A stretch of 64,000 nt of DNA from Candidatus Methanogaster sp. UBA203. Its GTDB lineage: Archaea; Halobacteriota; Methanosarcinia; Methanosarcinales; Methanogasteraceae. The notes beneath the pieces are model-generated. The model saw nothing but the letters and a program-made list of their open reading frames with translations, did not search any database and had not been told where the DNA came from. The translations under genes and the position numbers were made by a program. The stretch is taken from assembly GCA_002503595.1 (NCBI GenBank), contig DASC01000135.1:2596-66595 (forward strand). The letters are read 5' to 3'. Of the stretch, positions 1 through 61,393 are shown piece after piece (the first letter of the stretch is position 1; each line of letters begins with the position of its first letter).

Positions 1-190
1 ACACGCCCGGAGGTGATCAAGATGTCGCCTGTGGTGCGGGCGTGCGAGGGCTCGGGGGCGGAGTGGTTTATGGTTCACACGGGGCAGGGGTGTTCGCGTG
101 ATGTGGGTCGGGTGTTCTCTGGGGGCTTGGGCTGCCGGATGCGAGGTATAATCTGGATGTCGTATAATCTGGATGTCGGGGTGGGGGCAG
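1..190 (+). pseudogene. 5' fragment of a UDP-GlcNAc 2-epimerase (WecB-like) gene, copy 1; runs off the window start and is degenerate
   Basis: The translation TRPEVIKMSPVVRACEGSGAEWFMVHTGQ parallels the N-terminus of the better preserved copy at 762. Nt 1-135 are almost identical to 1743-1875. A 16-nt unit gtataatctggatgtc is duplicated in tandem at 146-177. The rest of the enzyme is absent. Confidence 0.7.
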
Positions 191-326
191 GGGGGCATTG
201 GAGTTGTCAAACGATAGTGCCTCTGGCGGCTGGCTGTTATGTTGATGACGTGATAGATAGATTCAGGACGAGTTGTTGCATAAGATGAAGAGGATGGATA
301 GGTGAAAATAGGAGGCGAGAATAAGA

Positions 327-560
327 ATGGAAGACGCCAAAACGATAACGATAAGCCCCAGGATTTATGCGGAATTGAACGCCTTTATGGGTATTCTCAG
401 TGATCGATTGAAGAGGCGCGTCTCGATCGATGACGCGCTCGAAAATTTACTACCACGTGCACATAGAAACAAGCCAAGCGATTTTGCGGGTGCATGGGTA
501 ATGAGCGACGAGGAGGAGGAAGAGATTAAGAAGAGTCTTAAGGAGTTGTGGCGAAGATAA
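327..560 (+). CDS. VapB-like antitoxin (small archaeal type with an acidic C-terminus)
   Basis: 77 aa. The tail FAGAWVMSDEEEEEIKKSLKELW resembles archaeal VapB-type antitoxins. A PIN-toxin remnant starts 26 nt downstream. Confidence 0.5.
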   Translation: MEDAKTITISPRIYAELNAFMGILSDRLKRRVSIDDALENLLPRAHRNKPSDFAGAWVMSDEEEEEIKKSLKELWRR

Positions 561-586
561 CCGCAAGTTTAGAACGCAACGGGAAC

Positions 587-724
587 ATGATAGATATACG
601 GGATCTGCTTATCGCTTCGATCGCTCTGGTTAATAGCTATGGAGTTTTGACAAATAATGTAAGGCATTTTGATAGGGTAAAGCATTTGAGGGTGATTGCT
701 GGCAGAGCAAATGATTATGACTGA
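587..724 (+). pseudogene. C-terminal remnant of a PIN-domain (VapC) toxin
   Basis: This 45-codon ORF is not in the track. MIDIRDLLIASIALVNSYGVLTNNVRHFDRVKHLRVI matches the last third of PIN toxins (D-x-LIA ... T-N-N-x-x-HF-x-RV). The N-terminal part carrying the first acidic residues is missing. Confidence 0.55.
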
Positions 725-761
725 GCAATTCGTTGAGACGTAGATTTAGGGGAGGTTATGG

Positions 762-1028
762 ATGAAGACCTGCGTAATTATTGGCACACGCCCGGAGGTG
801 ATCAAGATGTCACCGGTGGTGAGGGCGTGCGAGCGGCGGGGGCTGGACTGGTTTGTGGTTCATACCGGGCAGCATTACCCGTACAACATGGACCGGGTGT
901 TTTTTGAGCAACTTGGGCTGCCGGATGCGAAGTATAATCTCGATGTTGGGTCCGGGTCAGGGGGTATGGAGCAGACAGGGAAGATGCTTGAAGGGAAAGA
1001 TATTTTAGGTCCGAAAAACACATATTAA
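762..1028 (+). pseudogene. 5' fragment of a WecB-like epimerase gene, copy 2 (best preserved, about 75 codons, then divergence and a stop)
   Basis: MKTCVIIGTRPEVIKMSPVVRACERRGLDWFVVHTGQHYPYNMDRVFFEQLGLPDAKYNLDVGSGSGG is a typical WecB N-terminus. Full enzymes are about 350-380 aa, whereas this ORF stops after 88 codons. Confidence 0.75.
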
Positions 1029-1049
1029 ATTGGAAAAGAAGGGATCAAG

Positions 1050-1307
1050 ATGGAATCCGAAACGAGAAGAGTTATATATCCTGTTATGGCGATCACGCAA
1101 GAACGTCTATCAGATAGAGGTGTGAAAGTATCGCAAAAGGAGTTGATGTATGTGATCACTGAATTCATCGCCAAAAATGAGGAGGAATTACTAAGGATGG
1201 TGCAGGAGAAGAGAAGGAGCTATGATGCGAATTTGAGAAAGTGGTTGAACACCCCTGTTGAGGTCGAGAGAACCGATGCACTAAAGGAGCATGATTTGGT
1301 GGTGTGA
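1050..1307 (+). CDS. Antitoxin partner of the downstream PIN toxin (VapB-like)
   Basis: 85 aa. Its stop overlaps the GTG start of the PIN ORF (GTGA at 1304-1307), which is the classic TA operon layout. Confidence 0.55.
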   Translation: MESETRRVIYPVMAITQERLSDRGVKVSQKELMYVITEFIAKNEEELLRMVQEKRRSYDANLRKWLNTPVEVERTDALKEHDLVV

Positions 1308-1708
1308 TCTTGTTTATCGATAGTGTTGTGTGGATCGGTGCTAAATTAAAACGGGACCAGTGGCATAGAAAGTCAGTTCCGATCATAAGAAAATTCCTCG
1401 ATAAGGAGATTGAAAAGGCATATATTACAGATTATATCGTCTTAGAAACGGTGAATTTTATTTTGAGAAAAGGCAGTTTCGATGCGGCACTGGAGACATT
1501 GAATCTCTTTGAGTACCATGAAAGGATTGAAATCGTAAATATCGATGAAATGTCCTTTGCTCGCGCTTCTGCGATCTTTAAGAGATATCCCGGGTTGTCA
1601 ATCACCGATGCATCAACGGTGGCGGTAATGGAGGATCTGGGAATAGCGCAGATTTACACGTTTGATGAGGGTTTTGATAGGATAGAATGGATTGGGAGGC
1701 TGGAGTGA
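1304..1708 (+). CDS. vapC: PIN-domain ribonuclease toxin (VapC family)
   Basis: 134 aa. N-terminal ILFIDSVV supplies the first conserved Asp. IVLETV and SITDASTVAVMEDLGIAQIYTFDEGFDRI supply the later acidic residues. Confidence 0.75.
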   Translation: MILFIDSVVWIGAKLKRDQWHRKSVPIIRKFLDKEIEKAYITDYIVLETVNFILRKGSFDAALETLNLFEYHERIEIVNIDEMSFARASAIFKRYPGLSITDASTVAVMEDLGIAQIYTFDEGFDRIEWIGRLE

Positions 1709-1712
1709 ATCG

Positions 1713-1904
1713 ATGACGGGTAAGATCTGTATCATTATTGGCACACGCCCGGAGGTGATCAAGATGTCGCCTGTGGTGCGGGCGTGCGAGGGCTCGGGGG
1801 CGGAGTGGTTTATGGTTCATACCGGGCAGAGGTGTTCGCGTGATGTGGGCCGGGTGTTCTCTGGGGGGCTTGGACGACAGGGTTATGAGGACGTTAAGAT
1901 ATGA
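1713..1904 (+). pseudogene. 5' fragment of a WecB-like epimerase gene, copy 3
   Basis: MTGKICIIIGTRPEVIKMSPVVRACEGSGAEWFMVHTGQRCSRDVGRVFSGGLG. It is nearly identical in nucleotides to copy 1. Homology ends near 1875, and its stop overlaps the ATG (1901) of the next gene. Confidence 0.7.
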
Positions 1905-2809
1905 AGACGAGTGAACTATTGATAGCAGGTGGAGCCGGTTTTGTCGGCAGGAATCTTGTAAGGGTGCTTCAATCCAGTGATTACGAGATGGGAATGATAA
2001 CGGTTGTGGATAAAGACAGAAAGAATCTAGAGTACGTGAAGAAGTTTGGTGTGAAAGCGGTTCAGGCAGATATGGATGAAAAAGGAGATTGGTTTGACGA
2101 ATTCAACGGAAAAGAGATGGTCATCAACCTTGCAGCACAGATCTCTTCTCCTTCTTATGATGATTTCCACAGAAATAACGTCGTTTCTACGGAAAATATT
2201 ATCGAAGCCACCAGAGCAGCGGACATTGGTAGGATTATCCATTTCAGTTCTGCTGCGGTTCTCTCCATTCGAAAGGACGACTATGCCAAAAGTAAACTGG
2301 AAGGGGAAGAGATGGTTAAAAAGAGCGGGGTCGAATATTGCATATTACAGCCGTCTCTTATGTATGGTCCAACCGATGACAAAAACATAGGATACTTAAT
2401 CAATTTTGCCAAGAAACTCCCATGTTTCCCGATCCCGGGTCATGGGAAATGGCCCAGACAGCCGATCTACATCGACGACATCTGTTATCTCGTTATTTCG
2501 ATTATGGATAACTTCCCACACAATAAAGTTTACAGCGTCAATGGAAGGGAGGTTATCTACTTCAGGGATATGATAAAGATCGTTCTCAAGCAACTTGGAG
2601 GATTCAAGTTTAGAGTCTTCCTCCCCATCAGCTTGTTCAAGTTTCTCATGATGAGCTATCAACTACTGGCTGGAAGAACCCAGTTCACATCCGATCAGGT
2701 TGATTCCCTCACTGCTGAAGAGGTGTTTCCGAACTATGCATGGTGGGATGAGTTCGGTATTGATATCACATCCTTTGATGAAGGGGTTAGGAGGATGCTT
2801 GAACTATGA
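1901..2809 (+). CDS. NAD-dependent epimerase/dehydratase (extended SDR)
   Basis: 302 aa. It has the Rossmann motif GGAGFVGRNL and the catalytic YAKSK (YxxxK) motif. Confidence 0.8.
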   Translation: MKTSELLIAGGAGFVGRNLVRVLQSSDYEMGMITVVDKDRKNLEYVKKFGVKAVQADMDEKGDWFDEFNGKEMVINLAAQISSPSYDDFHRNNVVSTENIIEATRAADIGRIIHFSSAAVLSIRKDDYAKSKLEGEEMVKKSGVEYCILQPSLMYGPTDDKNIGYLINFAKKLPCFPIPGHGKWPRQPIYIDDICYLVISIMDNFPHNKVYSVNGREVIYFRDMIKIVLKQLGGFKFRVFLPISLFKFLMMSYQLLAGRTQFTSDQVDSLTAEEVFPNYAWWDEFGIDITSFDEGVRRMLEL

Positions 2810-3003
2810 TGGGGGAAAAGATACTTGCAGATTATGACAGGGAAGCGGACGTTCTTTGTATAAATTTTACCTATCCGCCCGAAGCAGTAGAACATAATGA
2901 AGATGAGAGGGGGCTCATCAGGAATTGTAATGAGCGTGAAGGTGTCGTGGGGATAACAGTGATTTCAGCGAGTGGATTTGCGGAGAGTAGTGACAGAGGT
3001 TAA
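2806..3003 (+). CDS. DUF2283-like small protein (antitoxin-like, orphan)
   Basis: 65 aa. ADYDREADVLCINF ... GVVGITVISAS fits the DUF2283 pattern. The start overlaps the upstream stop (ATGA). No DUF4258-type partner is present. Confidence 0.45.
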   Translation: MMGEKILADYDREADVLCINFTYPPEAVEHNEDERGLIRNCNEREGVVGITVISASGFAESSDRG

Positions 3004-3004
3004 A

Positions 3005-4393
3005 ATGATGAGTGATAATATCTCGGAGGTCATCCCGGTAAAAAACGAGGAAGCGAAGATTATGCAGTGCCTTGAAGCGGTCTTCTCTCAATCCCTCAAG
3101 CCGCATGAGGTGCTCGTGGTCGATGGACATTCGACTGATCGGACGGTGGAGCGGGCGAGGGAGTTTCCGGCCAGGGTGGTTTATGAGGATTATGGAACAG
3201 TTGGTGGAGCGCGGCAGGTCGGGGTTTTGAGTGCAGAGAGTGGGATTGTGGCTTTTACGGATGCTGATTGCGTTCCTGAGAAAAATTGGTTAGAAGATGT
3301 CGTAAAGGAATTTGATGAGGGTATTGTCGGTGTGGGGTGTGGGATAAAAAATGATGATGACCTGGTAGCTATATCAGTAGTAGTTCCGGTATACAATGGT
3401 GAGAAAACGATAAAGAAGACAATAGAAGCGTTGCTATCGCAAAAAACAGAAAAAAAATACGAAATTATCATTGTCGACGACGGTTCTACAGATAATACCC
3501 CCAACATTATTAAAAAATATCCCATAAAAACAATCACTCAAAAAAATGCAGGGCCCGCAGCAGCGAGAAATATCGGTTGGAAAGCCTCGTCGGGAAAGAT
3601 AGTAGCATTTACAGACAGCGACTGTGTCCCCATTCCGGATTGGATCGAAGCAATAAGTAAACACTTCAATGACCCCGCTATAGGAGGAGTTGGCGGCACA
3701 TATAAGATGGAAAATATAGGAAACATTCTTGCAACCTATATCGGAGAAGATATAAAATTTAGGCATGACCGACTTGGAAAGGAAATAGAAGCAGTAGGAA
3801 CGTTCTCTGTCGCATTTCGGAAGAATTTACTCGAACGGGTTGGTGGATTTGATGAAACATATAAAAAGGCTACCGCGGAGGACTTTGATTTATGTTTTGC
3901 AATACGTAAAACAGGGCATAAAATAATATACGAGCCAAATGCGATTGTGGGTCATTATCACAAGGAAAGCTTTTTAAAATATATAAAGAGTCAGTTCTGG
4001 TTTTCAGTTTGGAGAATATATTTATATGATAAATATAAATGTATGGCAAAAGGTGATCGGTACACGCCAATAACAACATTAATCCAAGTACCGGTAACAT
4101 TGTTATTTTTATTGAGTTTAGTATTGGGTGTTTTTATCGAAAAATTATTTATAATATCGATATTTCTTGTAGGTGTTCTTCTTATGTTAACTATTCCATT
4201 TATAAGCTATGAGATACGAAAGAATCCATTGATTGCGGTAATAGGGGTATTTATGCAGTTTATTAGAAACATCATCTGGGCAGTTGGTTTTGTCGGTGGG
4301 TTGGTTAATTTGTTTTATTTAAAGTTTGAAAAATGCAAAAAAAGAAGACGTGGTAAAGAACATGTTATTAAGCTGGTGGATAGTACAACATGA
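3005..4393 (+). CDS. Family-2 glycosyltransferase: a truncated GT-A N-terminal half fused in frame to a complete GT2 with C-terminal TM helices
   Basis: There are two successive GT2 motif sets: VIPVKNEE..VVDGHSTDRT..FTDADC, then VVVPVYNGE..IVDDGSTDNT..FTDSDC..EDFDLC. The hydrophobic tail has 3-4 helices. The ATG at 3005 is preferred because it follows the upstream stop at 3001-3003. Confidence 0.8.
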   Translation: MMSDNISEVIPVKNEEAKIMQCLEAVFSQSLKPHEVLVVDGHSTDRTVERAREFPARVVYEDYGTVGGARQVGVLSAESGIVAFTDADCVPEKNWLEDVVKEFDEGIVGVGCGIKNDDDLVAISVVVPVYNGEKTIKKTIEALLSQKTEKKYEIIIVDDGSTDNTPNIIKKYPIKTITQKNAGPAAARNIGWKASSGKIVAFTDSDCVPIPDWIEAISKHFNDPAIGGVGGTYKMENIGNILATYIGEDIKFRHDRLGKEIEAVGTFSVAFRKNLLERVGGFDETYKKATAEDFDLCFAIRKTGHKIIYEPNAIVGHYHKESFLKYIKSQFWFSVWRIYLYDKYKCMAKGDRYTPITTLIQVPVTLLFLLSLVLGVFIEKLFIISIFLVGVLLMLTIPFISYEIRKNPLIAVIGVFMQFIRNIIWAVGFVGGLVNLFYLKFEKCKKRRRGKEHVIKLVDSTT

Positions 4394-4462
4394 GACTATG
4401 AAAATTATGATGGGTATAAATTGGAGGTTTTTGGTGATGGTAAATTTTGGGAGTGGAGTGCA

Positions 4463-5587
4463 ATGAACATTTGCATGCTATCCTCTGAATTCCCCCCCGA
4501 TCTCGGCGGTATAAGTACGTACGTCCATAATTTATCAAAAAAATTGATAGAACGGGGGCATACTGTCACAGTTATCACGCGGGGGACATACAGAAAAACA
4601 TATCAGGAAAAGATAGATGGTATCTCTGTACATCGTGTGCGGTTCATACCATCATATCCTTCTCCATTCAAGTTACATGGATTGTTCGTGAATAAATCAT
4701 TTAAGTTATTGGAACCAGATTTTGACGTAGTACACGTACATGGAACACTCGTGCCGGTCATCCATACATCATTGCCAGTCATATTTACCTCACATGGTAC
4801 TTCCAATAAGGATATTGACAATATGCCGATGAAAAGTTTTCACTTTTATGTTGTTAGTCTTATGCGCAGGCAATTATTTAATGCAGAAAAAACGATTGTA
4901 GGAAGTGCAGATGTAATTACTTCGGTGTCACATTCGTGTGCAAAAGAACTGAAAAAAGACCATGTAGTAAATAAAAAAATTACAGTTGTGAATAATGGTG
5001 TAGATAGTAACTTTTTCATTCCCATTGAAAATAATAAAAAAGAAAATTATATATTATATACTGGGAGATTGGAGACAAGAAAAGGATTGATTGATTTCAT
5101 TGAAAGTGCGAAATACGTATGTCGAAAATATGTTGATATTAAGTTTATCTTAACTGGTAAAGGCACGATTAAAAATTATCTGGAGCGAAGAATTGATAGT
5201 TTCGGTTTGAAAAAAAACTTCTGCTTTACCGGGTTTGTGGATAGGTCAATGCTTCTTGAATACTATCAAAATGCAGCTATTTATGTTCTCCCATCATATT
5301 ATGAAGGACTGCCCACAACTTTGCTCGAAGCGATGTCATGCGGAATACCCTCAATCGCGACAAATGTAGAGGGGAGTTCTGAAGTGATAATCGATGGTGA
5401 AACAGGTTTGTTAGTTCCTCCGAAAGATCCTGAGAAATTAGCAGAAGCAATAATAATGTTATTAGAGAATAAGGTGTTACGAAACAGATTGAAGATGAAC
5501 GCAAGAAAATATATTGTAGCTACTCATGATTGGGAGATTATAACAGACAGAATAGAAAAAGTGTATGAAAAATGTGTAACTAAATAG
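4463..5587 (+). CDS. GT-B glycosyltransferase (GT4/GT1 family)
   Basis: N-terminal SSEFPPDLGGISTYVHNL. The C-terminal EX7E motif is EGLPTTLLEAMSCGIPSIATNVEGSSEVI. The ATG at 4463 is preferred over the track's upstream alternative start at 4421. Confidence 0.8.
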   Translation: MNICMLSSEFPPDLGGISTYVHNLSKKLIERGHTVTVITRGTYRKTYQEKIDGISVHRVRFIPSYPSPFKLHGLFVNKSFKLLEPDFDVVHVHGTLVPVIHTSLPVIFTSHGTSNKDIDNMPMKSFHFYVVSLMRRQLFNAEKTIVGSADVITSVSHSCAKELKKDHVVNKKITVVNNGVDSNFFIPIENNKKENYILYTGRLETRKGLIDFIESAKYVCRKYVDIKFILTGKGTIKNYLERRIDSFGLKKNFCFTGFVDRSMLLEYYQNAAIYVLPSYYEGLPTTLLEAMSCGIPSIATNVEGSSEVIIDGETGLLVPPKDPEKLAEAIIMLLENKVLRNRLKMNARKYIVATHDWEIITDRIEKVYEKCVTK

Positions 5588-5648
5588 TAGTAAAAATATA
5601 ACATGAGCCGGATAATTTTGTCGCAAAATCTAAAAGAAGATCGTATCG

Positions 5649-7562
5649 ATGAGCATGTCCGGGTGGCGTAAAGTAGGTGATAAGATGGAATTCGCGAAGT
5701 TTGGTGGCGAGAACAGAATCATTAAAATCGTATCCACCATCGCTTTTATTTTTATCGCAATATCTTTAGATATAATTGCGAAAACTTCTCCAACTGTTGG
5801 CTACGAAGTATCAATTTATAACGCCTACCCCTCCTACTTTTGGTTTTTAGTTATAGCTAGTATTGCTTGTGGCATTGGGATACTGTTGTACCAGGCTTTT
5901 GCTCAAGAAAAATCCCGATGGTGGGTTCTTGGACTTGTGATAATTATCTTAGTCAACACCATTTTTCTGCTCATGCCTGAGTTTAGAGGGTATTCCTTCT
6001 ATGCGCGAGGGGAGGACACACTCACACACGCCGGATACATCAGAGATATTCTAAATACTGGGCATGTAGGTGAAAGCAATTACTATCCAATCGAGCACAT
6101 ATTGGGTACAAACTTAATCCAAGTATCTGGAATATCGCTAGAAGATGTTTCTGCTCTATTTTTCGTCCTTTTTTCTGGAATGTATATTATTACTATATAT
6201 CCTTTGGCCAAAAGCACTAGTAAGCACTCGGGTCAAGTTCTATTAATAGTTGCTTTCGCCTCACCTTTAATATACAGTTTTTTTCATGTAAACATTTCTC
6301 CCAATATTTTTTCTTTGTTTATGCTACCATGTTTGTTGTATTTTTATCATAAAAGAGAGTTAATCCCATCAAATCGCATGGAAAATACTATTGCGGTGCT
6401 TATATTGGCGTTTTGCATTGTTTTTTTCCATGCCGTTACCACACTCTTCACCATAATTGTTTTTTTTGTATTTGGGCTTGCTTATGCTCTGTACTCCAAT
6501 TTTATTGTCCGCAGACTATCTGAGCATAGGCAATATGGAATTGTCGGTAAGAATTTTCTTAGAATAACTTTTATCCTGTTTATAGCTTTTTTCATGTGGT
6601 ATTTCTCGTACTCATCTATCTGCAATAGTTTCAGAAGAGTTGCCGACTGGTTAATCTATCAGATTGGCACTCCTTTGTTCGATGCACAACTTGAAACATT
6701 GAGAGAAACTGGACCTACATGGTCTCAAACTTTTGAACTTTTTGTGAATAGGTATGGCGCTATTTTTTTATTGTTGCTACTTTCGAGTATATGTTGTATA
6801 TATGTGATTAGGAAAAGTTTGTCAAAAGCACATAATATAGGACCCATGATGTTTACATACGCAATTCAATTCACGATTGCTCTTTTCATTAGTGTTATAA
6901 TGCTATTTGGTTATTTTTTCGAATATAATCCCGTCAGAGTTTTTAGGCTTCCTTTACTAATGGGTACAATTCTTAGTGGGTTGGTGGTTTATGATTTCGT
7001 TAGCGGATATACTAGGAAGAAGTCTAATAAGAGAAACAAGTTGCGCCAAAGGTTATTCATAATAGTAATTTGGATGACCATAATGGTCATGGTTACGCTA
7101 AGTTTTGGGAGTGTTTATAATTCACCGAGAGTGTATCTGCCAAATTCTCAGACCACCTCAATGGACCTAGTTGGCACAGAATGGCTGGATAAATCGAAAA
7201 GTCCTGATATTCGCATAATTGTTAGTCGATGGTCAGCACATTCTCTGCACCGATTCGAAGATTATAATTTTGGAATAGATTCCTCCCCTACCGTCAAAGT
7301 AGGAATAATCCACGAATATCTTCCTTCGCACTTTGGTTATGGTGGGAATAGCTCAGTTGTAGAATCTTTAGGTTTTCGAGATATGTATGTAGTCATCTTC
7401 CAAGTAGATAAAGTAATAACGATGTTTGTCCCAGAGAATGTTGGATCAAATATAGATCAGTGGACGGAAGAAGATTTTGCCAAGCTAAAAGTCGATCCTA
7501 CTGCAGTACATGTCTATGCTAATGGTGAATTTGATGTGTGGGGGGTATATGGCGAATTTTGA
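5649..7562 (+). CDS. Large polytopic membrane protein with a soluble C-terminal domain (glycan polymerase or GT-C-like role inferred from context only)
   Basis: 637 aa. More than 10 hydrophobic segments are followed by a hydrophilic tail of about 170 aa. No AglB WWDYG motif was seen. It lies within the glycosyltransferase cluster. Confidence 0.6.
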   Translation: MSMSGWRKVGDKMEFAKFGGENRIIKIVSTIAFIFIAISLDIIAKTSPTVGYEVSIYNAYPSYFWFLVIASIACGIGILLYQAFAQEKSRWWVLGLVIIILVNTIFLLMPEFRGYSFYARGEDTLTHAGYIRDILNTGHVGESNYYPIEHILGTNLIQVSGISLEDVSALFFVLFSGMYIITIYPLAKSTSKHSGQVLLIVAFASPLIYSFFHVNISPNIFSLFMLPCLLYFYHKRELIPSNRMENTIAVLILAFCIVFFHAVTTLFTIIVFFVFGLAYALYSNFIVRRLSEHRQYGIVGKNFLRITFILFIAFFMWYFSYSSICNSFRRVADWLIYQIGTPLFDAQLETLRETGPTWSQTFELFVNRYGAIFLLLLLSSICCIYVIRKSLSKAHNIGPMMFTYAIQFTIALFISVIMLFGYFFEYNPVRVFRLPLLMGTILSGLVVYDFVSGYTRKKSNKRNKLRQRLFIIVIWMTIMVMVTLSFGSVYNSPRVYLPNSQTTSMDLVGTEWLDKSKSPDIRIIVSRWSAHSLHRFEDYNFGIDSSPTVKVGIIHEYLPSHFGYGGNSSVVESLGFRDMYVVIFQVDKVITMFVPENVGSNIDQWTEEDFAKLKVDPTAVHVYANGEFDVWGVYGEF

Positions 7563-7573
7563 TTAACCTATTC

Positions 7574-9019
7574 GTACGTGTTTAGCCGCTCAGCCTCGCC
7601 CTCATCATCTGGAGACTGTTGAATCCCTGCTGTGCCCACGTTGCCAGCACTGTCATGATCCGCTCGTGAATTGACGTCCCTTTTCTATTACGCAGTGTTC
7701 CCACGATCTTCCGCTGGACGACATGCTCAGCGATTTGAGCCCTTTCTGCTCTGTTATTGGTCGACTCCACGCCTGGATGAGTGACAAACGTGAACCAGTA
7801 ATCAAAGCCATTTTCAATCTTGCCGATGAGCTTTTCCACCTTCTCGCTTCCGTATTCTCTCTTGAGCCATCGTTTGAGCGTTGCTTCCGCATTATGTGAC
7901 AGCTTCTCCCGAGTTTCGGGAGGAGGATCATTCTCCAGCGCGTCAATCAGTTTTTCATGGAGTCTCCCCGAGTGCTCTGTGTAAAGGAACCGCCTCCGCA
8001 ATCTTCTCGGTGAGATCCTTTGATTCTCGAAGTAGATGTGCCCAGCAACGCTGGATACGGTTTGTAAATTTGGCGTACGGTTTCCAGCCGTCACACACGA
8101 TCATTCCCTTGAATCTCCTTGTCAGAACCTCTACCAGGACTTTTGTGCCCCGACTCTTCCGAATCACGACAAAAGTCTCTGCGGGGGTGGTGAATGCCCA
8201 TATCCAGTGTTTCTTTCCCTGAACTCCGATTGAAGTTTCGTCCACATGCAGAATCGGAGCGTTACGAACTCGTTCCAGAATTGCGTCATATTCCGATTGA
8301 ACCGCATCAGCAGCACGGCGAGTGAGATCGAGTATCGTAGCAGGACTGATGTCCAATCCATAGTGCCGTATCAGCGCGTTCCGGATCTTCCGGTGTGGCA
8401 GCCTATCTTCATATTTCAGCAGTGCCGCCTGAGCAATCGTGTTGTTACCGAATATACCTTCTTTTGGACAACTCGAATCGGTTGCAACGACTTCTTTCTG
8501 GCAGTGTGGGCAGGTGTAATGTGCAATATTGTATTCGGTGACGATAACAGGCTGTGGTTCCGGAATCTCCTCGATAACCTTCGTTTCCACGCTGAACGGC
8601 TCACCAAGCTCAGTTCCAAAGTACAGGACACCGATCTTTCGTGACCTCCACCTGTCTATCAGGCTTTGCAGGAGGTCTCGTCACACCCTTATGTCCTTTC
8701 TTCTGCCCCGGCTTCTTCCACCGCCTTTATCTGGATCTTTTTTGCGCTTGCCGCCACGCTTCAGACTTGGTGGGGTATGTGCGTTCTCATACATAGCCAG
8801 TTGGCAACGAGCTCCTTTATGCATACCTTAAGCGACTCATTCTCATGCTTAAGTTGGTCAATCACGTCTCGAAGTTGTTTGATGATCTCGTCCTTGTCCA
8901 TCGTCCTCTTAGAAGACTATTACAGTAACAATATAGAAGTTTTGTGGTCGAGGATGGGTTTTAGATCGATCTGGAAGAACAGTGTGATGGGTGGTTATGT
9001 GGGGGAGCTAAACACATAC
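7574..9019 (-). mobile_element. IS66-family insertion sequence (single-ORF, ISBst12-like size), decayed
   Basis: Imperfect terminal inverted repeats are gtacgtgtttagc (7574-7586) and gctaaacacatac (9007-9019). It encloses a broken IS66-type transposase. It is a GC-rich element inside AT-rich flanks. No clear target duplication was found. Confidence 0.65.
7582..8901 (-). pseudogene. IS66-family transposase, disrupted by at least three frame changes
   Basis: The pieces are MDKDEIIKQLRD.. (from 8901), YENAHTPPSLKRGGKRKK..GHKGVTRPPAKPD (another frame), ORF 7955-8590 (CPHCQKE..HVDETS..DGWKPY..QRCWAHLLR) and ORF 7582-8094 (ESTNNRAERA..). Confidence 0.75.
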
Positions 9020-9094
9020 CAGTAAGTTAAATACGACGGAATCCTATTAATTAAAAAGAAATTAGATGGACTTGTAGACGAGTTTGGTGATAAA

Positions 9095-10075
9095 ATGGTA
9101 AATAAAAATCTATTCGTGATAGGCAGTGAGCATCTAAGGAAATGGGAACTCAAGTCATTTCTATGCGGGTTTATCTTTTTTAGCATATCTAGGAGGAACT
9201 TATGTGTAGATAATTTAAGATACGTAATTGCAAAGATGCGCAATAAGGGGGTAGATTACACTAAAGTAAAAGTAAATGATAATTTAATGTATATAAATTT
9301 TAAGGATAATGGAATCTCTAAGGAACTTTATATCCACCGGAAAAGAGAGCATTTTTCAACTGAATTCATAAAAGAAATTATTAGCGAAGACGAAATCATA
9401 ATTGATATAGGAGCTAATATTGGATACTATGCCTTATTAGAGTCTCAATTGGCAAATAAGGGAATGGTGTATGGTGTAGAGCCCATACCTTCAAATATGA
9501 ATTTATTGAATAGAAATATAGAATTGAATAATCGCAAGAATTTTTCTTCTTTTCAATGTGCTATAAGTGATAAAAATGGTGAAGCGAAAATGTATGTGTA
9601 TGACAAATGTAATTGGTGTTCCTTCACAAAAGATCCAGGCGGTAATATAATAGATGAAATCGAAGTTCAAACAATGACGTTAGATAAGTTTGTGGAGTCT
9701 TGTGTCTGTCAAGATCCTACGTTCATTCGAATGGATTCTGAAGGACATGAATATCAGATAATCAAAGGTGCAGCTAACATTTTTAAAAAAAATAATCCAC
9801 TAAAATTATGTATAGAATTGCACCCCCACTTGATGCCAAGGAAAAACATGGAAGAACTGATTAACAATCTAAAACAAAGTGGTTTCAAAGTGATGGCAAT
9901 ATTTTTAGATTCAACCCCCTATAACTATAAAAATATTAATACAATAAATAGATTGTGTAGAGCAATGAAAATTCCTGAATTTGGGTTTGCAGGCAATAGT
10001 TACGAAGATATATACAAACTATTAAAAGAGAGATGCTACGCACCCATTGTTTTTTTTGAAAGAGGAAAAGCATAA
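9095..10075 (+). CDS. FkbM-family SAM-dependent methyltransferase
   Basis: IIDIGANIGYYAL (SAM motif I), VYGVEP and FQCAISDKNGEAKMYV are present. The true start may be the ATG at 9236. The gene is very AT-rich. Confidence 0.7.
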   Translation: MVNKNLFVIGSEHLRKWELKSFLCGFIFFSISRRNLCVDNLRYVIAKMRNKGVDYTKVKVNDNLMYINFKDNGISKELYIHRKREHFSTEFIKEIISEDEIIIDIGANIGYYALLESQLANKGMVYGVEPIPSNMNLLNRNIELNNRKNFSSFQCAISDKNGEAKMYVYDKCNWCSFTKDPGGNIIDEIEVQTMTLDKFVESCVCQDPTFIRMDSEGHEYQIIKGAANIFKKNNPLKLCIELHPHLMPRKNMEELINNLKQSGFKVMAIFLDSTPYNYKNINTINRLCRAMKIPEFGFAGNSYEDIYKLLKERCYAPIVFFERGKA

Positions 10076-10094
10076 TATAAATTCAAAGATAACT

Positions 10095-11345
10095 TCAAAC
10101 CCACCCATTCCTCCACACCATCACCCCCACGTACACGCTCCCAACCACATTCCCCACCACCCACGCATACCCCACCCCAATAACCCCAAATATAGTCATA
10201 AACACATACCCAAGCCCAACCACTAGCCCACAGATCACCCCACTCAGAACCACAATCCCACGCACATCCTTCTGAATCCTCTTGATCGCAAAATAAACAT
10301 AATTCACCCCGATAAACAAACTTGCTACAACCATCACCCGCAGCACCCCCAACCCACCTCCGGCATAATCCTCCCCGATCACTCCAAGCGCTACGCCACC
10401 GCAAACATACAGCACAGCCGCAGCCGGAACCAGCAGCGAAAAGATAACAATCAGCGACTTTACAACGGTTCTTTTCAATGCCGCACCATGGCTGCCCTCA
10501 ACAAAGAGCGATATGCTGATCGCATTCGGTATCATGAAGAGCAGAGACACTACTGCAAACGCGATATAATAATACGCCGCCTGCTCGGCCCCGAGCATGT
10601 TCAGAACCATAATCGGTATTATCATATTCGGAGCCGCCATGAAGATGCCCACAAGATAATTACCGGCAGAGAAATGAAATGCATCGTTCAGAAAGCCACG
10701 ATCAACCACAAGCATAGGTCTGATCCCTAAACTTATTAGAAAAACAACTGCAATCGAAAGCGCAAACAGAAACGATATTCCGACTGCGCTGAAGATGCCG
10801 ATTGCTCCGAGTGTGGTGAGGGGGATTAAGAAGATGACTCTTGAGCCGACGACAATGCTCTGAAAAAACTGAAACTCAGCTTTTCGTATTGCGACAAACG
10901 AGATTCCAGTTAACGCGGTCACAGAACTTGCTGCAAGGAAGATTAAAAAGAGTGATGCGTTCTGCGGCGATTTTAGAAGATCAAGTTCTGGCGAAACTGT
11001 ATCCACACCTGCGATGAATATCGTACCGAGTAGAACCGCGAAAAATGTTGTTACGAGTGCAGATGTACTGAATGTCCTACTCTTATCATTTGTCGGGAAG
11101 AATCTGATAACCGAGAAGTCCAAACCTAATCTGGAGAGTGAGACGAGCAGAGCCATTAAGGAGATGAGCGCAGCTGCGATGCCAAAGTCTTCCTTCAGAT
11201 ATAACTTTGCCGCAAGCATCCAGAAGATGAAGCCGAAGCCTGCGCTTGATATGTGTGTGAGCACGATGAATAGAGAGTTTCTGAGGAGATGGTCATGGAA
11301 GCAGTGGTTCATCTCTGCTCTGGTTTTTGGCATTCTGATTTTCAT
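10095..11345 (-). CDS. Polysaccharide/oligosaccharide flippase (Wzx-like, MOP superfamily)
   Basis: 416 aa, hydrophobic throughout with about 12-14 helices. Its position in the glycan cluster fits a flippase. Confidence 0.7.
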   Translation of the reverse strand: MKIRMPKTRAEMNHCFHDHLLRNSLFIVLTHISSAGFGFIFWMLAAKLYLKEDFGIAAALISLMALLVSLSRLGLDFSVIRFFPTNDKSRTFSTSALVTTFFAVLLGTIFIAGVDTVSPELDLLKSPQNASLFLIFLAASSVTALTGISFVAIRKAEFQFFQSIVVGSRVIFLIPLTTLGAIGIFSAVGISFLFALSIAVVFLISLGIRPMLVVDRGFLNDAFHFSAGNYLVGIFMAAPNMIIPIMVLNMLGAEQAAYYYIAFAVVSLLFMIPNAISISLFVEGSHGAALKRTVVKSLIVIFSLLVPAAAVLYVCGGVALGVIGEDYAGGGLGVLRVMVVASLFIGVNYVYFAIKRIQKDVRGIVVLSGVICGLVVGLGYVFMTIFGVIGVGYAWVVGNVVGSVYVGVMVWRNGWV

Positions 11346-11639: not shown

Positions 11640-11768
11640 TGTACAGTGTGTATTTACCCCTATTAATGTGTTCTAAGAAACTATTGTGTGGTTCAGCATA
11701 TTCCCAGTGATCAAAAATTTGGTAATGTCCTAATCCAAGATAGTTAATTGGAAATAGAAAAATTCGTG

Positions 11769-12850
11769 TCATGTCCACAGGTGATCTGCCAATCCCTCTA
11801 ACATTGCAGGGGAACTTCTTCTTTTGAACCCGTTTATGAAATTCCAATAGAATTGAAACAGTTGGAGCGAACATTTCAGCATCCACCTCCGTTTTGAGAA
11901 ACATTTTGTCTTCCGTACCAACCTACCAATCCTTTCCCTGAGTATCCCGTTGTAGTTCTCGACGTCGGTGGTTTCGTACATGTTCAATATCGTGTGGAAT
12001 TTTTGGATAGAAATTTGCAAAACCACCACTGGCCGCCAGTTCCCTAAACCCAACAATAGTGATTTACCACAACTTATTGAGCAAGTACGTGGTTTCTATA
12101 TCGCCGGGATCCGGGTTACCGTATATTGTCCTTTTCTCCTTGCGGACGACTCTTCCATTCTCCCTGATCTTTACAAGCTGCCCATAATCGATACAGGTAT
12201 CCACATAATAATCCGGTAAAACATAAGTGTAATCGTCGTTTCCATCGGTGAATACCTCCATTTTAGTCTGCGGAGACGGCTGCTCCGTTCTTTCAGATAG
12301 CTTCTCTATCATTCTTCCACAAGTCTCCTGGGTCCATTTCCCAACTGAAAAAGCCACAAAGAAGTATGTGCTTCACTTTATGCAGGTGTAGATCCATGCA
12401 TCACCCTCTTCAGTCCAATTCGGGCTGCCGGGCTCAATATTTTTTTGTTTTTTTGATAAAGCTCCACAGTTCATCGCATTCGAATGGGGTAAGCCCGAGG
12501 GTCTTTATGAGATACTCATTCATCTCTGCCGCATGTTCAGCCATATCCTCCAGCAATCTACCTATCGTGTCCCTATGGTGACCTGTGATCCGCTCGATAC
12601 TCCGTAACCCGTTCTTCTCTACCAGATGCTTGCAAATATTGATTATTTCACTTTCGGGCAGTTGTTTCCGGTATAACGGAGTGCCCTTCGTTTCCATGAA
12701 ATAGGTTTCGCAATGCTTGCAGTAATACCTCTGATGGCCGGTACTCTTGTACTTACCGCTTTTGATAATGTCTTTCCCAGCTTCTTTTCGGTAATAACGA
12801 CACCGGGGGTTCTGACAAACAACATCGATTTTTCCTCTTGGTCGCGCCAT
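11769..12850 (-). pseudogene. IS1-family transposase (InsA/InsB-like), decayed
   Basis: The N-terminal Zn-finger/HTH ORF (CQNPRCRYY..YYCKHCETYF) ends in an A7-C-A7 run (12440-12454), the typical IS1 -1 slip site. The continuation carries an in-frame TGA and further frame breaks. The DDE-region motifs DGNDDY and VENYNGILRERIGRLVRKTKCFSK are present. Confidence 0.65.
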
Positions 12851-12876
12851 GGTGTTCACCAAGAGAATGGTTCCGT

Positions 12877-13971
12877 TGCATACTATAATAGACCTGTTGC
12901 GAAACAACACCCACTACACGAATTATACGCCCCAACCCTCCATACGACTCCCTCGATTTAGCAGCGTTTGAGGTGGTAATTCCACAATCCACAGGATATT
13001 AACATAACTTTATCATCAAACTCCTCTTTTTTGTTGCGAAACTTATCAGAAACTATCCTGAACCGCTTAACACCCCCAATAGCGTGCTCCACGAGGACTC
13101 TGAAACCACTGACAATCCGGTTCCACGCCTTCGCATCGTCGGTCAATTCTTTTCCTTTCGGCTTTTTCTTCGACATCATGACGACCGCATCGGTATAATC
13201 CTTTTCAACGCCAAGAAATCCCAAATCCATCCACGAAACCACATTTCTTGCAAATATTCCATACGGCGGTGGAAATTTCATCCTTGAACATCCGATAATC
13301 ATGCTTTTTACCCTCCATAGTTGGGCTTAAATAGCCAATTCGTCTTTTCTTGTTGGAGATGATTATATTCTTCCGGGTATGCATCTTCTTCTTGCCGGAG
13401 TAGTTTTTCTTCTGCTTCTCGTTGTCTTTTGGTCTTTGGATTGGTCTCTCGGTGCCGTCGATGAACAGATCCCTTACGTCGGGAAATATCGCAAACAACT
13501 CTTCTACAGTCCTTATTTTTCGCTTTGGTAACGTTGTCTCCCTACTGAGCGCTTTCTCCAATGCCAGTGTTAATTTATGGATATTACGGTTTGCATTCGA
13601 TCTGTTAAGATCAAATACGAATCCTAAGATATCAAAAGTTGGATAACACTTGAAATAGAAGAGCGTGAAGAATAACTTCTCCGCGTCACTTTCTAAATTT
13701 CCTATTCTTCCGCCACCAGGCTTCCTTTCTCTACCCCCAAGTTTAACTCCTGTTTCATACCTAATCCACGCTTCATTTTGAAGTTCTTGTCCGAAACTAC
13801 CCGTCGGTTTGTTAAATTCGGATGCAGATAATCCAGTCATGGCTTTCAGCAGTCTATCGTCATTTAACGCTCGATCGAAGTTTAGCATATTTCATGAGAT
13901 ATATCTCACTTAATTTAAAGCTTTTTGGTTGAAGTGGACGCTAATTGGCAACAAGTCTAATAAACTATCGT
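12877..13971 (-). mobile_element. IS5-family (DDE_Tnp_4 / Harbinger-like) insertion sequence with a frameshifted transposase (12958-13888)
   Basis: Imperfect inverted repeats are ataatagacctgttgc (12885-12900) and gcaacaagtctaataa (13948-13963). Transposase motifs seen are LFIDGTERPIQRP, NYSGKKKMHTRKN, MDLGFLGVEKDY and RVLVEHAIGGVKRFRI. One frame change lies near 13205-13302. Confidence 0.6.
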
Positions 13972-18981: not shown

Positions 18982-19152
18982 GGGCACTGTCTGAAAAGCC
19001 AGTGATTTATCACCGCGGAATACGAAGTATCGCCGAAGGCCGAACGCGGAGGGCACAGAGTTTCGAGACTGTATAAGTCCTCTGCGTGGCTTTGCGCACT
19101 CTGTGGTAGAATCTAAGGGCGTGGCGATATCACTGGAAAAATCGAGAGTGCC
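18982..19152 (+). repeat. MITE-like repeat, copy A (about 171 bp)
   Basis: It aligns along its length with 61394-61565. Shared elements are atttatcaccgcggaatacgaagtatcgccgaagg, the triple motif ctctgcgtgg-ctttgcgca-ctctgtggt, and the termini ggcactgtc / gagagtgcc. Confidence 0.75.
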
Positions 19153-19595: not shown

Positions 19596-19885
19596 TCTTC
19601 AAACCCACCCCTCCTCCCTCCACACCATCACCCCAACGCACACGCACACGCACCCAACCCCATTCGCAACTACCCACGCATATCCAACCCCAACGACCCC
19701 AAACATCGTCATGAACAGATACCCCAATCCAACCAATGACACAAAAATCACCCCGTTCAGAACCACAATCCCCTTAACATCCTTCTGCACCCACTTGATC
19801 GCAAAATAAACATAATTCACCCCGACAAATAAACTTGCAACCACCATCGCCCGCAGCACTTCCACCCCGCCAGCAGCATAATCCG
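19596..19885 (-). pseudogene. Diverged 3' fragment of a second Wzx-type flippase gene
   Basis: VLRAMVVASLFVGVNYVYFAIKWVQKDVKGIVVLNGVI..GVGYAWVV aligns with the C-terminus of the intact flippase (VLRVMVVASLFIGVNYVYFAIKRIQKDVRGIVVLSGVI..GVGYAWVV). Homology stops at a repeat-derived sequence, gcgcactctgcggt. Confidence 0.75.
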
Positions 19886-20072
19886 CGCCCCTTCGCGCAC
19901 TCTGCGGTTATATTCTGTGTTTGGTTACAGTAATGCCTGCCCTTCGGGCATGGCATCGATAGAATCGAATCCTTCTGGGATTCTATTATGCCTCATGTCC
20001 TGGATAGTTCCTGCATAGTGAAGTCCCACGATAGTGGTTTAGGTACCTGAGTAGTTACAAAAAAGCTTAACA

Positions 20073-20144
20073 AGCCTCGGGCGGGAATTGAACCCGCGAC
20101 CTCGTCCTTACCAAGGACGCGCTATACCGCTAAGCCACCGAGGC
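20073..20144 (-). tRNA. tRNA-Thr (anticodon GGU)
   Basis: Hand-folded cloverleaf: acceptor GCCTCGG/CCGAGGC, anticodon stem CGTCC/GGACG with loop TTGGTAA, T-arm GCGGG-TTCAATT-CCCGC, discriminator T. No encoded CCA. Confidence 0.85.
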
Positions 20145-34755: not shown

Positions 34756-34945
34756 CATGAAACGGTATCGGAAAATCCAGTGAAATCACTATATCCTTAA
34801 ATTTTACCGCAGAGCACGCGGAGAACGAGAGAGGCACCAGAAAACCAAAGCGAGGATCGAAACGGTATCGAAACTCTGCGACCTCCGCGTTCTCCGCGGT
34901 GATAAATCACTTGATTTTTAGACAGTGTCCATGAAACGGTATCGG
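34756..34945 (-). repeat. MITE-like repeat, copy C (short variant, inverted), including flanking 16-nt perfect direct repeats
   Basis: catgaaacggtatcgg occurs at 34756-34771 and at 34930-34945. The interior (34772-34929) carries gacactgtctaaaaatcaagtgatttatcaccgcgg (reverse strand) and the ctc(t/c)g(c/t)g triple motif. Confidence 0.7.
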
Positions 34946-53484: not shown

Positions 53485-53812
53485 CAAACTTTTCACAAAA
53501 GTTTGATCAAAAACTGCCCTTCGGGGTTATACACCCGTTTTTCACTCGCAAACTTTCCACAAAGCTTTGACGGTTCCGCTGGCGCTTCGCATTCAAAAAA
53601 TGGTCTCCGACCCGAAGGGCATTTCTTACTCGCAAACTTTTCACAAAAGTTTGATCAAAAACTGCCCTTCGGGGTTATACACCCGTTTTTCACTCGCAAA
53701 CTTTCCACAAAGCTTTGACGGTTCCGCTGGCGCTTCGCATTCAAAAAATGGTCTCCGACCCGAAGGGCAGTTTTTACTCGATTTTTTGTGAAAAAATCGT
53801 GTGAAAGAATCA
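53485..53812. repeat. Tandem repeat of 148-bp units (2 near-identical units plus a diverged hairpin tail), each unit made of two related half-units of about 74 bp
   Basis: caaacttttcacaaaagtttga starts at 53485 and again at 53633. The two units differ at only a few positions near 53620-53625. Perfect 9-bp/3-nt-loop hairpins are caaactttt-cac-aaaagtttg and cgatttttt-gtg-aaaaaatcg. Confidence 0.9.
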
Positions 53813-61322: not shown

Positions 61323-61393
61323 CTTTAATCACATTCGTTGCCTGTATGTTACCTTGCCACTATGCGGACAAAGTACTTAATGATCGTGATCGC

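Follow-up and report, generated by a model that had tools for sequence, protein, structure and literature searches.

Tandem wecB 5′ stubs separated by toxin–antitoxin cassettes at the edge of a surface-glycan gene cluster in ANME-2c archaea

A surface-sugar gene cluster in a methane-oxidising ANME-2c archaeon is headed by four copies of the first ~50-85 codons of the epimerase gene wecB, with a different small toxin–antitoxin (TA) cassette in each gap, which raises the question of how such an array is built. ANME archaea are uncultured, slow-growing and globally important consumers of methane, and to our knowledge gene exchange among them has barely been described. In a first-pass annotation of a 64-kb stretch of Candidatus Methanogaster sp. 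UBA203 (the window, by which we mean the whole stretch of DNA that was analysed), three of these stubs were read as a hotspot where DNA repeatedly entered at the 5′ end of one gene and regenerated a stub each time. All evidence on the array presented here is comparative and comes from short-read contigs, with neither an excised or circular intermediate nor polymorphism within a population observed.

The stubs in the window, all on the forward strand, were located by tblastn using the intact WecB of Ca. Argoarchaeum as the query. Stub 1 (positions 1-204), which was also recovered as a direct repeat and in alignments, matched WecB residues 11-74 (E 1e-14). Stub 2 (762-1028) is an open reading frame of 88 aa, where 771-995 matched residues 6-80 (E 2e-36, 83% identity) and the WecB homology extends from 762 to about 995, corresponding to residues 1-80. 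A tblastn extension of this match into the following antitoxin gene (WecB residues 6-145) disappeared under composition-based statistics and was taken to be spurious. Stub 3 (1709-1904) matched residues 1-50 over 1713-1859 (E 2e-16), and its WecB homology ends near residue 53. Direct repeats at 1-125, 786-910 and 1743-1867 confirmed the triplication, although a further copy described below means that the annotation had understated the count. As it had proposed, copies 1 and 3 are nearly identical (97% nucleotide identity in the direct-repeat comparison; 96-97% over stub 3) and copy 2 is diverged (74%); stubs 1 and 3 also match stub 2 at the DNA level. The identity between stubs 3 and 1 starts 4 nt ahead of the ATG (1713) and runs to about 1873, and on the near-identical contig L001 this repeat spans 159 nt, likewise starting 4 nt before the ATG. 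Stub 1 is cut by the start of the window, its ATG lying 30 nt upstream at L001 position 3138.

None of the stubs runs into the rest of the enzyme, in agreement with the annotation: all end at WecB residues 50-84, tblastn with intact WecB found no intact wecB in the 64-kb window, and compared with the full two-domain enzyme of ~360 aa the copies are fragments of the gene and not enzymes. When searched against the Pfam family HMM at its gathering score, copy 2 alone passed (Epimerase_2, 39.3 bits against a cut-off of 30.6, profile positions 2-58 of 347), whereas copies 1 and 3 gave no match; their assignment to WecB was therefore upheld by the HMM for copy 2 and failed for copies 1 and 3 taken alone, yet these match by tblastn. 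Nor is wecB restored by the last copy in the window, a 53-codon stub that is joined to another operon; its stop codon (1902-1904) overlaps the ATG (1901) of an NAD-dependent epimerase gene, just as the annotated fusion to the glycan operon had it. The break point in wecB differs between close strains, in that the orthologue of stub 3 in L008 has the same upstream junction and reaches WecB residue ~113, compared with residue 53 in the window, before a different, Alg14-like gene follows.

Most stub reading frames are still open and often overlap the next start codon. The dN/dS values of orthologous stubs were 0.25-0.58, compared with 0.13-0.21 for functional copies and about 1 for neutrality, which would point to constraint that is relaxed yet not neutral, the counts being too small for a decision. 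The open frames and these ratios hint that the stubs may have a function outside the recombination model discussed below. Stub 1 has degenerated: it lacks 1 nt near position 120 and carries a 16-nt tandem duplication (146-161/162-177). Degenerate stubs have an excess of A>G changes (16 A>G against 3 G>A in stub 1); hypermutation was considered as the cause and not adopted, since the affected stubs share ancestry and the counts are not independent.

Two cassettes lie between the window stubs, both on the forward strand. Cassette 1 consists of a VapB-type antitoxin gene (327-560; VAPB_antitox PF02697, 27.8 bits, E 4.4e-6, just under the cut-off of 27.9) and a VapC (PIN) toxin remnant (548-724), which matched NF047863 positions 79-126 of 130 (E 3.7e-12) and residues 84-127 of PDB 3zvk_A. 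The remnant is the C-terminal third of the toxin, its last ~45-50 codons only; this toxin is inactivated, and the junction between it and stub 2 is conserved in L012. Cassette 2 (985-1708) opens with a leader at about 985, which is followed by an 85-aa antitoxin-like gene (1050-1307) and by an intact PIN/VapC gene (1304-1708; PIN PF01850, 56.6 bits). Antitoxin genes typically overlap the start of the toxin gene, and although the 85-aa gene has no family match in Pfam or profile searches, it precedes the PIN gene and overlaps its start by 4 nt, as expected of a type II VapBC pair, so that 1050-1708 probably represents one. The cargo is thus as the annotation described it: a VapB-like gene with a C-terminal piece of VapC, an intact PIN pair, and a third copy joined to the glycan operon.

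The suggestion that the array may continue upstream proved correct. L001, an independent contig with 28 mismatches to the window over 12.8 kb, carries a GT2 glycosyltransferase gene, a fourth stub directly behind it, an interrupted DUF3368 gene, UPF0175 and, after these, the actual ATG of copy 1, so that window and L001 together hold four stubs and three cassettes. Repeats are hazards in short-read assembly and contig L002 breaks inside stub 3, and an assembly artefact or a simple local segmental duplication might be suspected. However, unrelated genes fill each of the three gaps in the array, the four stubs are 3-30% different from one another, and the whole array is repeated in L001, which is not identical. 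In addition, single junctions were seen again in L008, L010, L011 and L012, which come from other metagenomes; considering that the junctions recur in independent assemblies, we regard an artefact or simple duplication as extremely improbable. The comparison of related genomes sustained the annotated variable cargo and spoke against a simple local duplication.

The same architecture was found in contigs of ANME-2c, other Methanosarcinales and GoM-Arc1 (Ca. Argoarchaeum), with 0, 1, 2, 3, 4 or 8 wecB 5′ copies. The site is empty with an intact wecB in L006 and has no wecB remnant whatever in L022; L013, L020 and L023 have one stub and no cassette, L005 and L021 one cassette each, L009 two or more, and L017 about seven with eight wecB 5′ copies. 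The last copy in L017 covers WecB residues 5-167 and looks like the start of an intact gene, and the last copy in L005 reaches at least residue 111, the contig ending there in both cases. Cassettes of several kinds were present (DUF3368/UPF0175, DUF433/DUF5615, DUF2283 pairs, TumE, VapBC and AlbA_2-ATPase). With empty, singly filled and differently filled versions in related genomes, the locus is indeed a cassette-accreting hotspot with variable cargo.

The cassettes are modules that keep their own junctions between genomes, while their number and order vary. The DUF3368/UPF0175 unit is alignable across L001, L005 and L009, and a second type of UPF0175/DUF3368 cassette lies between wecB stubs in L003 and L017 and between GT2 copies in L015. 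Cassette 2 of the window recurs in L010 at 92-94% amino acid identity, the homology running from about window position 985 to the PIN stop codon; its left neighbour is a wecB stub in the window and a truncated GT2, with no wecB stub, in L010. Positions 1-1261 of L009 match 7612-8870 of L017 at 95%, and 1150-2259 match 5571-6655 at 85%, so the module order is A-B in L009 and B-C-A in L017. The repeated unit is not always wecB: in Ca. Argoarchaeum it is the neighbouring GT2 gene, in L015 a GT2 copy of ~0.7 kb, and a full GT2 copy stands in the middle of the L017 array.

The array precedes a strain-variable surface-glycan gene cluster (1901-11345, by Pfam matches), which begins with the NAD-epimerase gene (1901-2809) and a DUF2283 gene (2806-3003) and also holds glycosyltransferases, an FkbM methyltransferase, a flippase and an IS66 fragment. 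Gene content past the last stub differs in L008, L013, L015, L018 and L020-L023, and GT2 orthologues (62-93% amino acid identity) precede different operons in each of these contigs and in the window. From this comparison of the left flank, with the same flank before different glycan gene sets, the cluster is best described as a putative replacement flexible genomic island. An IS-like element end lies at 11729-11976 on the forward strand, and another copy, with 88% identity, is found upstream of GT2 (L001 277-456 and 647-721), so that IS-end repeats bracket the whole GT2-array-glycan island.

Serial replacement of the glycan island might in itself have left the stubs, with immobile cassettes and arrays that differ by differential deletion and ordinary recombination in the flanks. 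An incoming island with its own wecB would join illegitimately downstream of the resident wecB-TA unit, because recombinants losing the TA die, and deletions would trim the older copies. The differing operons and break points past the last stub would agree with such a course, as would the WecB C-terminal remnants in some stubs and the full GT2 copy within the L017 array, and one deletion could turn a window-like array into L010. Deletions alone, however, cannot give the permuted cassette order of L009 and L017, an illegitimate join landing just upstream of the wecB start is needed at every step, and the long exact tracts between flanking stubs described below are left unexplained. We consider serial replacement possible, if somewhat unlikely, as the whole account; it overlaps the explanation that we prefer and may describe how new cassette types originate.

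Islands that target dusA or icd in bacteria bring a replacement 5′ end, and serial site-specific integration into the 5′ part of wecB, each element bringing a new 5′ end, could be conceived for these arrays too. The elements would be small integrative ones, or TA-bearing remnants of larger ones, and the integrase would be lost or located elsewhere. A distal wecB that looks intact (L005, L017) and stubs in tandem whose cargo differs fit the geometry of 5′-end targeting, and TA modules are typical residues of decayed elements. Stub ends also cluster between WecB residues 75 and 113, and many fall within 75-89, where 59 of 120 database stubs end. The best 120 matches to stub 2 were all 67-154 aa long; as the retrieval may favour short proteins, no ratio of stubs to intact genes was drawn from them. 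A preferred site, selection, common ancestry or a bias in the search could each account for the clustering.

The junctions argue against such integration. Stubs end at WecB residues 53, ~74-78, 78-84, 85-92, 98-113 or 127, and the 5′ limits of their homology are likewise unequal, at −4, about −25 and about −90. No single crossover core of the dusA type is common to all junctions; the aligned stubs show cassette-specific junctions instead of the shared att-like sequence that had been envisaged. WecB C-terminal remnants are kept in L003 stub A, L017_11521 and L019, which identifies these stubs as internally deleted full-length copies, and the GT2 repeat of L015 is far too long for an att site. 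Among the genes called up to 10 kb from the arrays of L001, L013, L015, L017, L018 and L020-L023, as far as the contigs extend, none belongs to an integrase or recombinase Pfam family, and an exact-pattern scan of viral contigs for a viral or plasmid carrier of the stub motif gave zero matches. Serial site-specific integration is thus quite unlikely, and the annotated regeneration of stubs by entry at one att-like 5′ site was not sustained, given variable junctions, no integrase, no hairpin site, C-terminal remnants and the repetition of GT2 in place of wecB in Ca. Argoarchaeum. As to the wecB 5′ end as a recognition site, this candidate was rejected: intact genes have no extra DNA-level conservation there, identity being about 0.8 along the whole gene.

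Stubs that flank cassettes share exact tracts of 205 nt (6471 and 7593 in L017), 97 nt (13271 and the final stub in L017) and 89 nt (stubs 1 and 3 of the window), while overall identity leads to an expectation of 20-43 nt. These long tracts indicate probable crossover or gene conversion between flanking stubs, and with mosaic tracts and modules exchanged with intact junctions the loci have the features expected of an array shaped by homologous recombination. The hotspot appears to depend on ordinary homologous recombination and not on an integrase.

We infer that duplicative homologous recombination, anchored in the conserved GT2/wecB 5′ flank, inserts and shuffles cassettes, while upstream copies decay and TA addiction biases retention, and we give this explanation about an even chance of being right. 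In ANME-2c and related Methanosarcinales, GT2 and the first ~150-380 nt of wecB would make up the conserved left border of a replaceable glycan island, serving as an anchor because they are conserved between strains. Homologous recombination would bring in DNA bearing the anchor and duplicate it, whether a circle pops in by a single crossover, chromosome copies cross over unequally, or one end joins by homology and the other illegitimately, and the cargo would thereby be placed between two wecB 5′ copies. The redundant upstream copy would then shrink by deletion to a stub, and recombination or gene conversion between stubs could excise, re-insert and reorder [stub-cassette-stub] modules within and between genomes. 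TA and defence cargo would build up, since loss of an active TA cassette would kill the cell and pop-out would be selected against. In the window, stubs 1 and 3, which are nearly identical, enclose the two-cassette block 205-1708, as would be expected after a single circle crossover into a stub already fused to the operon. On the other hand, this explanation does not account for the first placement of each new cassette type between two anchors, random deletion does not obviously predict the clustering of stub ends, a recombinase encoded away from the arrays might take part, and two of the three toxins in the array of Candidatus Methanogaster sp. UBA203 are already inactivated, which speaks against retention by addiction.

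No wecB- or GT2-stub array was found described in the literature that we searched, and the arrays share features with several known systems. Surface-glycan replacement islands (López-Pérez et al. 2014, PMC4033161; Haloquadratum walsbyi, PMC4535781) likewise have conserved flanking genes that bracket a glycan cluster varying between close strains, and their exchange is put down to homologous recombination within those flanking regions. Their titles and abstracts do not describe a tandem flank array, whereas here as many as eight tandem copies of the flank (the wecB 5′ end or, in some arrays, GT2) alternate with TA or defence cassettes; the locus is an additive array embedded at the edge of a replacement island. 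In the orphan toxin/immunity arrays downstream of rhs and cdiA (Koskiniemi et al. 2014, PMC3967940), a conserved-gene fragment also precedes each tandem cassette, the cargo is a toxin with its antidote, and fragment homology lets recombination swap or activate cassettes. However, those fragments are 3′-proximal and are fused in frame to toxin domains secreted for competition, whereas in the wecB arrays the fragments come from the 5′ end of a sugar epimerase gene and the cargo is made up of TA or defence operons that are self-contained and intracellular. Islands of the dusA type (Farrugia et al. 2015, PMC4482086) and tandem tRNA-gene islands resemble the arrays in the displaced 5′ target fragment at one end, and repeated integration would yield tandem fragments with different cargo; dusA-type islands have an adjacent tyrosine integrase and one defined crossover sequence, neither of which was found at the wecB arrays. 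Variable hotspots of ANME-1 (Zhou et al. 2026, PMC13385816) are similar in that structural variants of ANME archaea are enriched in TA and defence genes, but the loci there are hicAB, and the text mentions no epimerase, glycosyltransferase, truncated genes, direct repeats or integrase.

Integrons, including archaeal ones (Ghaly et al. 2022, PMC9668308), share the ordered, small, promoter-proximal and TA-rich cassettes whose order is shuffled between genomes. Unlike them, the wecB arrays have no adjacent IntI gene, attI or attC palindromes, and the element between cassettes is a coding fragment of 160-380 nt with no significant single-strand structure: single-stranded stubs folded on both strands gave z scores of −0.9 to +1.3 against shuffled sequence, and no inverted repeats were found at cassette boundaries. 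It is conceivable, although we hold it unlikely, that ANME-2 and GoM-Arc1 possess an integron-like platform that captures TA and defence operons as cassettes at the wecB 5′ site, with [anchor+cassette] circles passing between cells, either integrase-free or served by an unlinked, unrecognised recombinase, and with stub reading frames as translated leaders.

Whatever the route, the locus is a recurrent and easily recognisable collecting site for defence and addiction modules, and it adjoins genes for the cell surface, a likely virus receptor. The repeated stubs cause assemblies of these genomes to break at the locus and offer a marker for strain-level tracking. If anchor homology alone moves the cassettes, integron-like ordered and shuffling arrays would arise without an integrase, and the site would be a natural landing pad for genetic tools.

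Three direct repeats were found in the window (1-125, 786-910 and 1743-1867), and the identity to copy 1 was 97% for copy 3 vs 74% for copy 2, in agreement with the first-pass annotation, which had described copies 1 and 3 as alike and copy 2 as diverged. When these 5' fragments of wecB (stubs) were placed on the intact 371-aa WecB of Ca. Argoarchaeum ethanivorans, copy 1 (1-204) matched residues 11-74, copy 2 (771-995) residues 6-80 at 83% identity and copy 3 (1713-1859) residues 1-50, so the claimed triplet holds, with matches confined to N-terminal residues (range 1-80). Only copy 2 was recognized as a WecB by the Pfam profile Epimerase_2, scoring 39.3 bits against a cut-off of 30.6 over positions 2-58 of its 347; copies 1 and 3 remained below the cut-off, though they aligned to intact WecB. 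Copy 1 has lost 1 nt and carries a tandem duplication of 16 nt at 146-177, and no intact wecB was found when the WecB protein was compared with the 64-kb window. The stop codon of copy 3 (1902-1904) overlaps the ATG of an NAD-dependent epimerase gene, the first gene of a glycan cluster reaching about 11.3 kb in the window. The toxin-antitoxin (TA) cargo is as initially called: a VapB-like gene (327-560; PF02697, 27.8 bits vs a cut-off of 27.9) with only the C-terminal third of a VapC (548-724; VapC positions 79-126, E 3.7e-12; residues 84-127 of PDB 3zvk_A), then an 85-aa gene without family match, the putative VapB' (1050-1307), which overlaps an intact PIN gene (1304-1708) by 4 nt.

The array had been suspected to extend upstream, and ENA contig L001 supplies 3.2 kb more, with a fourth stub and a DUF3368/UPF0175 cassette. 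Considering that L001 differs from the window locus by 28 mismatches over 12.8 kb, it represents a very close strain that was assembled independently. On L001, the stop of the GT2 glycosyltransferase gene overlaps the ATG of the fourth stub (stub0, 87 aa), and the UPF0175 antitoxin gene is followed, about 25 nt on, by the true ATG of copy 1. The DUF3368 (PIN-like) toxin gene is split by an insertion of about 220 nt (L001 2456-2665, some 500-700 nt before the window begins) with 26-nt imperfect inverted repeats at both ends; this interruption was seen in this genome only, the gene being an unbroken 164 aa in the related loci L005, L009 and L017. With copies 1-3 as stub1-3, the layout is GT2 - stub0 - (DUF3368/UPF0175) - stub1 - (VapB/ΔVapC) - stub2 - (VapB'/VapC) - stub3 - glycan operon. 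Short-read contig L002 breaks within stub3, but the junctions recur in other metagenomes, namely GT2-stub0-DUF3368 in L011 (99.6% identical), ΔVapC-stub2 in L012 (90%) and the stub3 junction in L008, as does the VapB'/VapC cassette in L010; an artefact or a plain segmental duplication is extremely improbable.

Relatives were recovered with a 26-nt stub motif, a stub protein query and GT2 orthologue queries. The PdxS encoded in the window shares 97-99% identity with proteins carrying the labels ANME-2 cluster archaeon, Ca. Methanogaster or Methanogasteraceae; these we take to mean ANME-2c, and the source is accordingly regarded as an ANME-2c archaeon. In Ca. Argoarchaeum L006, GT2 is followed by an intact wecB, and in L022 GT2 directly precedes the glycan operon without a wecB remnant. 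GT2, one stub and the glycan operon, without a cassette, make up L013, L023 and L020, a 244-kb Ca. Methanogaster contig. L005 reads GT2, stub, DUF3368/UPF0175 and a wecB running beyond residue 111; L021 reads GT2, stub, AlbA_2/ATPase, stub and Alg14 operon; and L009 holds three stubs with a DUF2283-type and a DUF3368/UPF0175 pair. L017 contains eight wecB 5' copies, separated by DUF3368/UPF0175, DUF433/DUF5615, a DUF2283 pair, a full GT2 copy, a TumE pair, AlbA_2/ATPase and a second UPF0175/DUF3368 type; its final copy covers residues 5-167 up to the contig end and looks like an intact gene. L015/L016, from a second Ca. Argoarchaeum genome, repeat GT2 rather than wecB: two truncated copies and one full copy enclose DUF433/DUF5615, UPF0175/DUF3368 and AlbA_2, and a single wecB stub comes afterwards. 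The best 120 database matches to stub 2 range in length from 67 to 154 aa, several on contigs of 20-376 kb; no stub frequency was taken from them because retrieval may favour short proteins. In L019 (10001-10500), an isolated wecB remnant that fuses residues 5-106 to 303-364 occurs in a non-glycan setting near an IS240/rve transposase gene, and stubs are therefore not limited to the GT2 locus.

An att-like, stub-regenerating integration had been proposed, and no att-like core emerged at the junctions. The 3' ends of the stubs map to WecB residues 53, about 74-78, 78-84, 85-92, 98-113 and 127, and the 5' limit of homology lies at -4, about -25 or about -90, the last taking in a shared leader. 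The ends do cluster at residues 75-113, and 59 of the best 120 database matches end at residues 75-89. L003 stub A, L017_11521 and L019 join an N-terminal WecB piece to a C-terminal remnant and are thus internally deleted full-length copies. Among called genes within 10 kb of the arrays (L001, L013, L015, L017, L018, L020-L023), no integrase or recombinase Pfam match was found, the only mobile-element genes there being IS transposase fragments. As single-stranded DNA, both strands of the stubs folded no better than their shuffled versions, the 26-nt motif was not found in viral contigs, and intact wecB genes were no more conserved at the 5' end than elsewhere. It is accordingly unlikely that the agent was a site-specific recombinase, whether lost since or working in trans. 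With no integrase or recombinase nearby and no stub folding, the array lacks what defines integrons (PMC9668308), and an integrase-borne island was likewise rejected on the missing integrase and variable junctions.

The cassettes behave as exchangeable modules. Between L009 and L017, the stub-(DUF2283 pair)-stub unit is 95% identical over 1261 nt, both junctions covered, and identity is 85% across 1.1 kb for the DUF3368/UPF0175 unit. The L010 VapB'/VapC cassette is that of the window (92-94% aa; homology from window ~985 up to the PIN stop codon), but stands behind a truncated GT2 instead of a wecB stub, and the stub downstream of it belongs to a different type that has 44 additional nucleotides. 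On its left, the type-2 UPF0175/DUF3368 cassette common to L003, L015 and L017 (84-92%) adjoins a wecB with an internal deletion in one case, a residue-88 stub in another and the end of GT2 in the third. The L008 orthologue of stub3 has an identical upstream junction but reaches residue ~113 before an Alg14-like gene; the stub-Alg14 junction is also present in L021. Immobile cassettes left as relics of serial replacement are a possible, though clearly less favoured, explanation, which overlaps the recombination model below and may account for the origin of cassette types; since L009 carries the modules as A-B but L017 as B-C-A, deletions alone are not enough.

Stubs on either side of one cassette or block share exact tracts of 205 nt (L017 6471/7593), 97 nt (L017 13271 and the final copy) and 89 nt (window stub1/stub3), where their overall identity predicts 20-43 nt, and divergent 5' and 3' parts border these tracts. 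Such a pattern is the mark of crossover or heteroduplex repair, or of gene conversion. Stub1 has the upstream junction of L005, L009 and L017 and reaches further 3' than stub3, which starts abruptly 4 nt before its ATG and keeps the residue-53 fusion. Since stub1 keeps the upstream junction and stub3 the fusion, the window geometry fits one circle crossing over into an older stub already fused to the operon. We regard a homology-anchor model as the most economical, and give it about an even chance of being right. The GT2/wecB 5' flank, a conserved edge of a replaceable glycan island, would serve as the anchor; cargo would be added between anchor copies by duplicative homologous recombination, deletion would erode redundant upstream copies, recombination among copies would shuffle modules, and TA addiction would skew which cargo stays.

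Most stub ORFs are open and frequently overlap the next start codon. ATGA-type 4-nt overlaps with neighbour genes are common at stub ORF starts and/or ends (window 1901-1904; L015 8234-8237; L017 7934-7937; L020 11107-11110 and 11493-11496; L021 10882-10885 and 11256-11259), as if the stubs were translationally coupled to their neighbours. The dN/dS of orthologous stubs was 0.25-0.58 vs 0.13-0.21 for functional copies. In a G-rich stub lineage (0.42-0.44; window 1-204 and 1713-1875, L001 1848-2111, L017 5477-5653, L009 2074-2284), HTGQ-CS(R/C)D(V/I)G-VFSGGLG replaces HTGQHYSYNMDRVFFEQLG, and A>G exceeds G>A relative to functional copies (16 vs 3 in stub 1). In the third stub of L009 (2230-2300), wecB codons '..LPDAKDNL' pass directly into 'VGITVMG', a typical DUF2283 C-terminal motif, which suggests a microhomology-mediated join of wecB ('NLDVG') to a DUF2283 gene.

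Other repeats were also observed. A MITE-like interspersed element of about 170-185 nt (CACTGTCT.AAAA.CAAGTGATTTATCACCGCGG...) has copies 82-93% identical at window 18985-19150, 61393-61563 and 34767-34934 (reverse) and L001 457-640, one just upstream of the GT2 anchor and one adjoining tRNA-Thr (20073-20144). A direct repeat of about 260 nt (88%) brackets the GT2-array-glycan island (window 11729-11976; L001 277-456 + 647-721, this copy broken up by the MITE); it is an IS-like element end, with fragmented transposase ORFs at window 11769-12910, minus strand. The glycan cluster contains an IS66-family transposase fragment (7955-8590, minus), and a DDE_Tnp_4 fragment is located just past the cluster (13205-13888, minus). 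At 53485-53780, a 148-nt unit is present in two tandem copies (99% identical), overlapped by a 51-nt inverted repeat (53623-53673/53759-53809), and a 261-nt direct repeat (80%) links 10116-10376 in the flippase gene region with 19629-19889 near tRNA-Thr.

Closest in logic to the array are orphan rhs/cdi cassette arrays (PMC3967940) and tandem islands at tRNA or dusA sites (PMC4482086). Hotspots of ANME-1 include TA-rich structural variants, with nothing resembling wecB-stub arrays in that 2026 paper (PMC13385816), and no description of wecB- or GT2-stub arrays was found in the literature. We infer the mechanism by comparing metagenome contigs; the locus itself is recurrent, clear-cut and apparently undescribed so far, and it joins a glycan replacement island (PMC4033161, PMC4535781) to an additive array.
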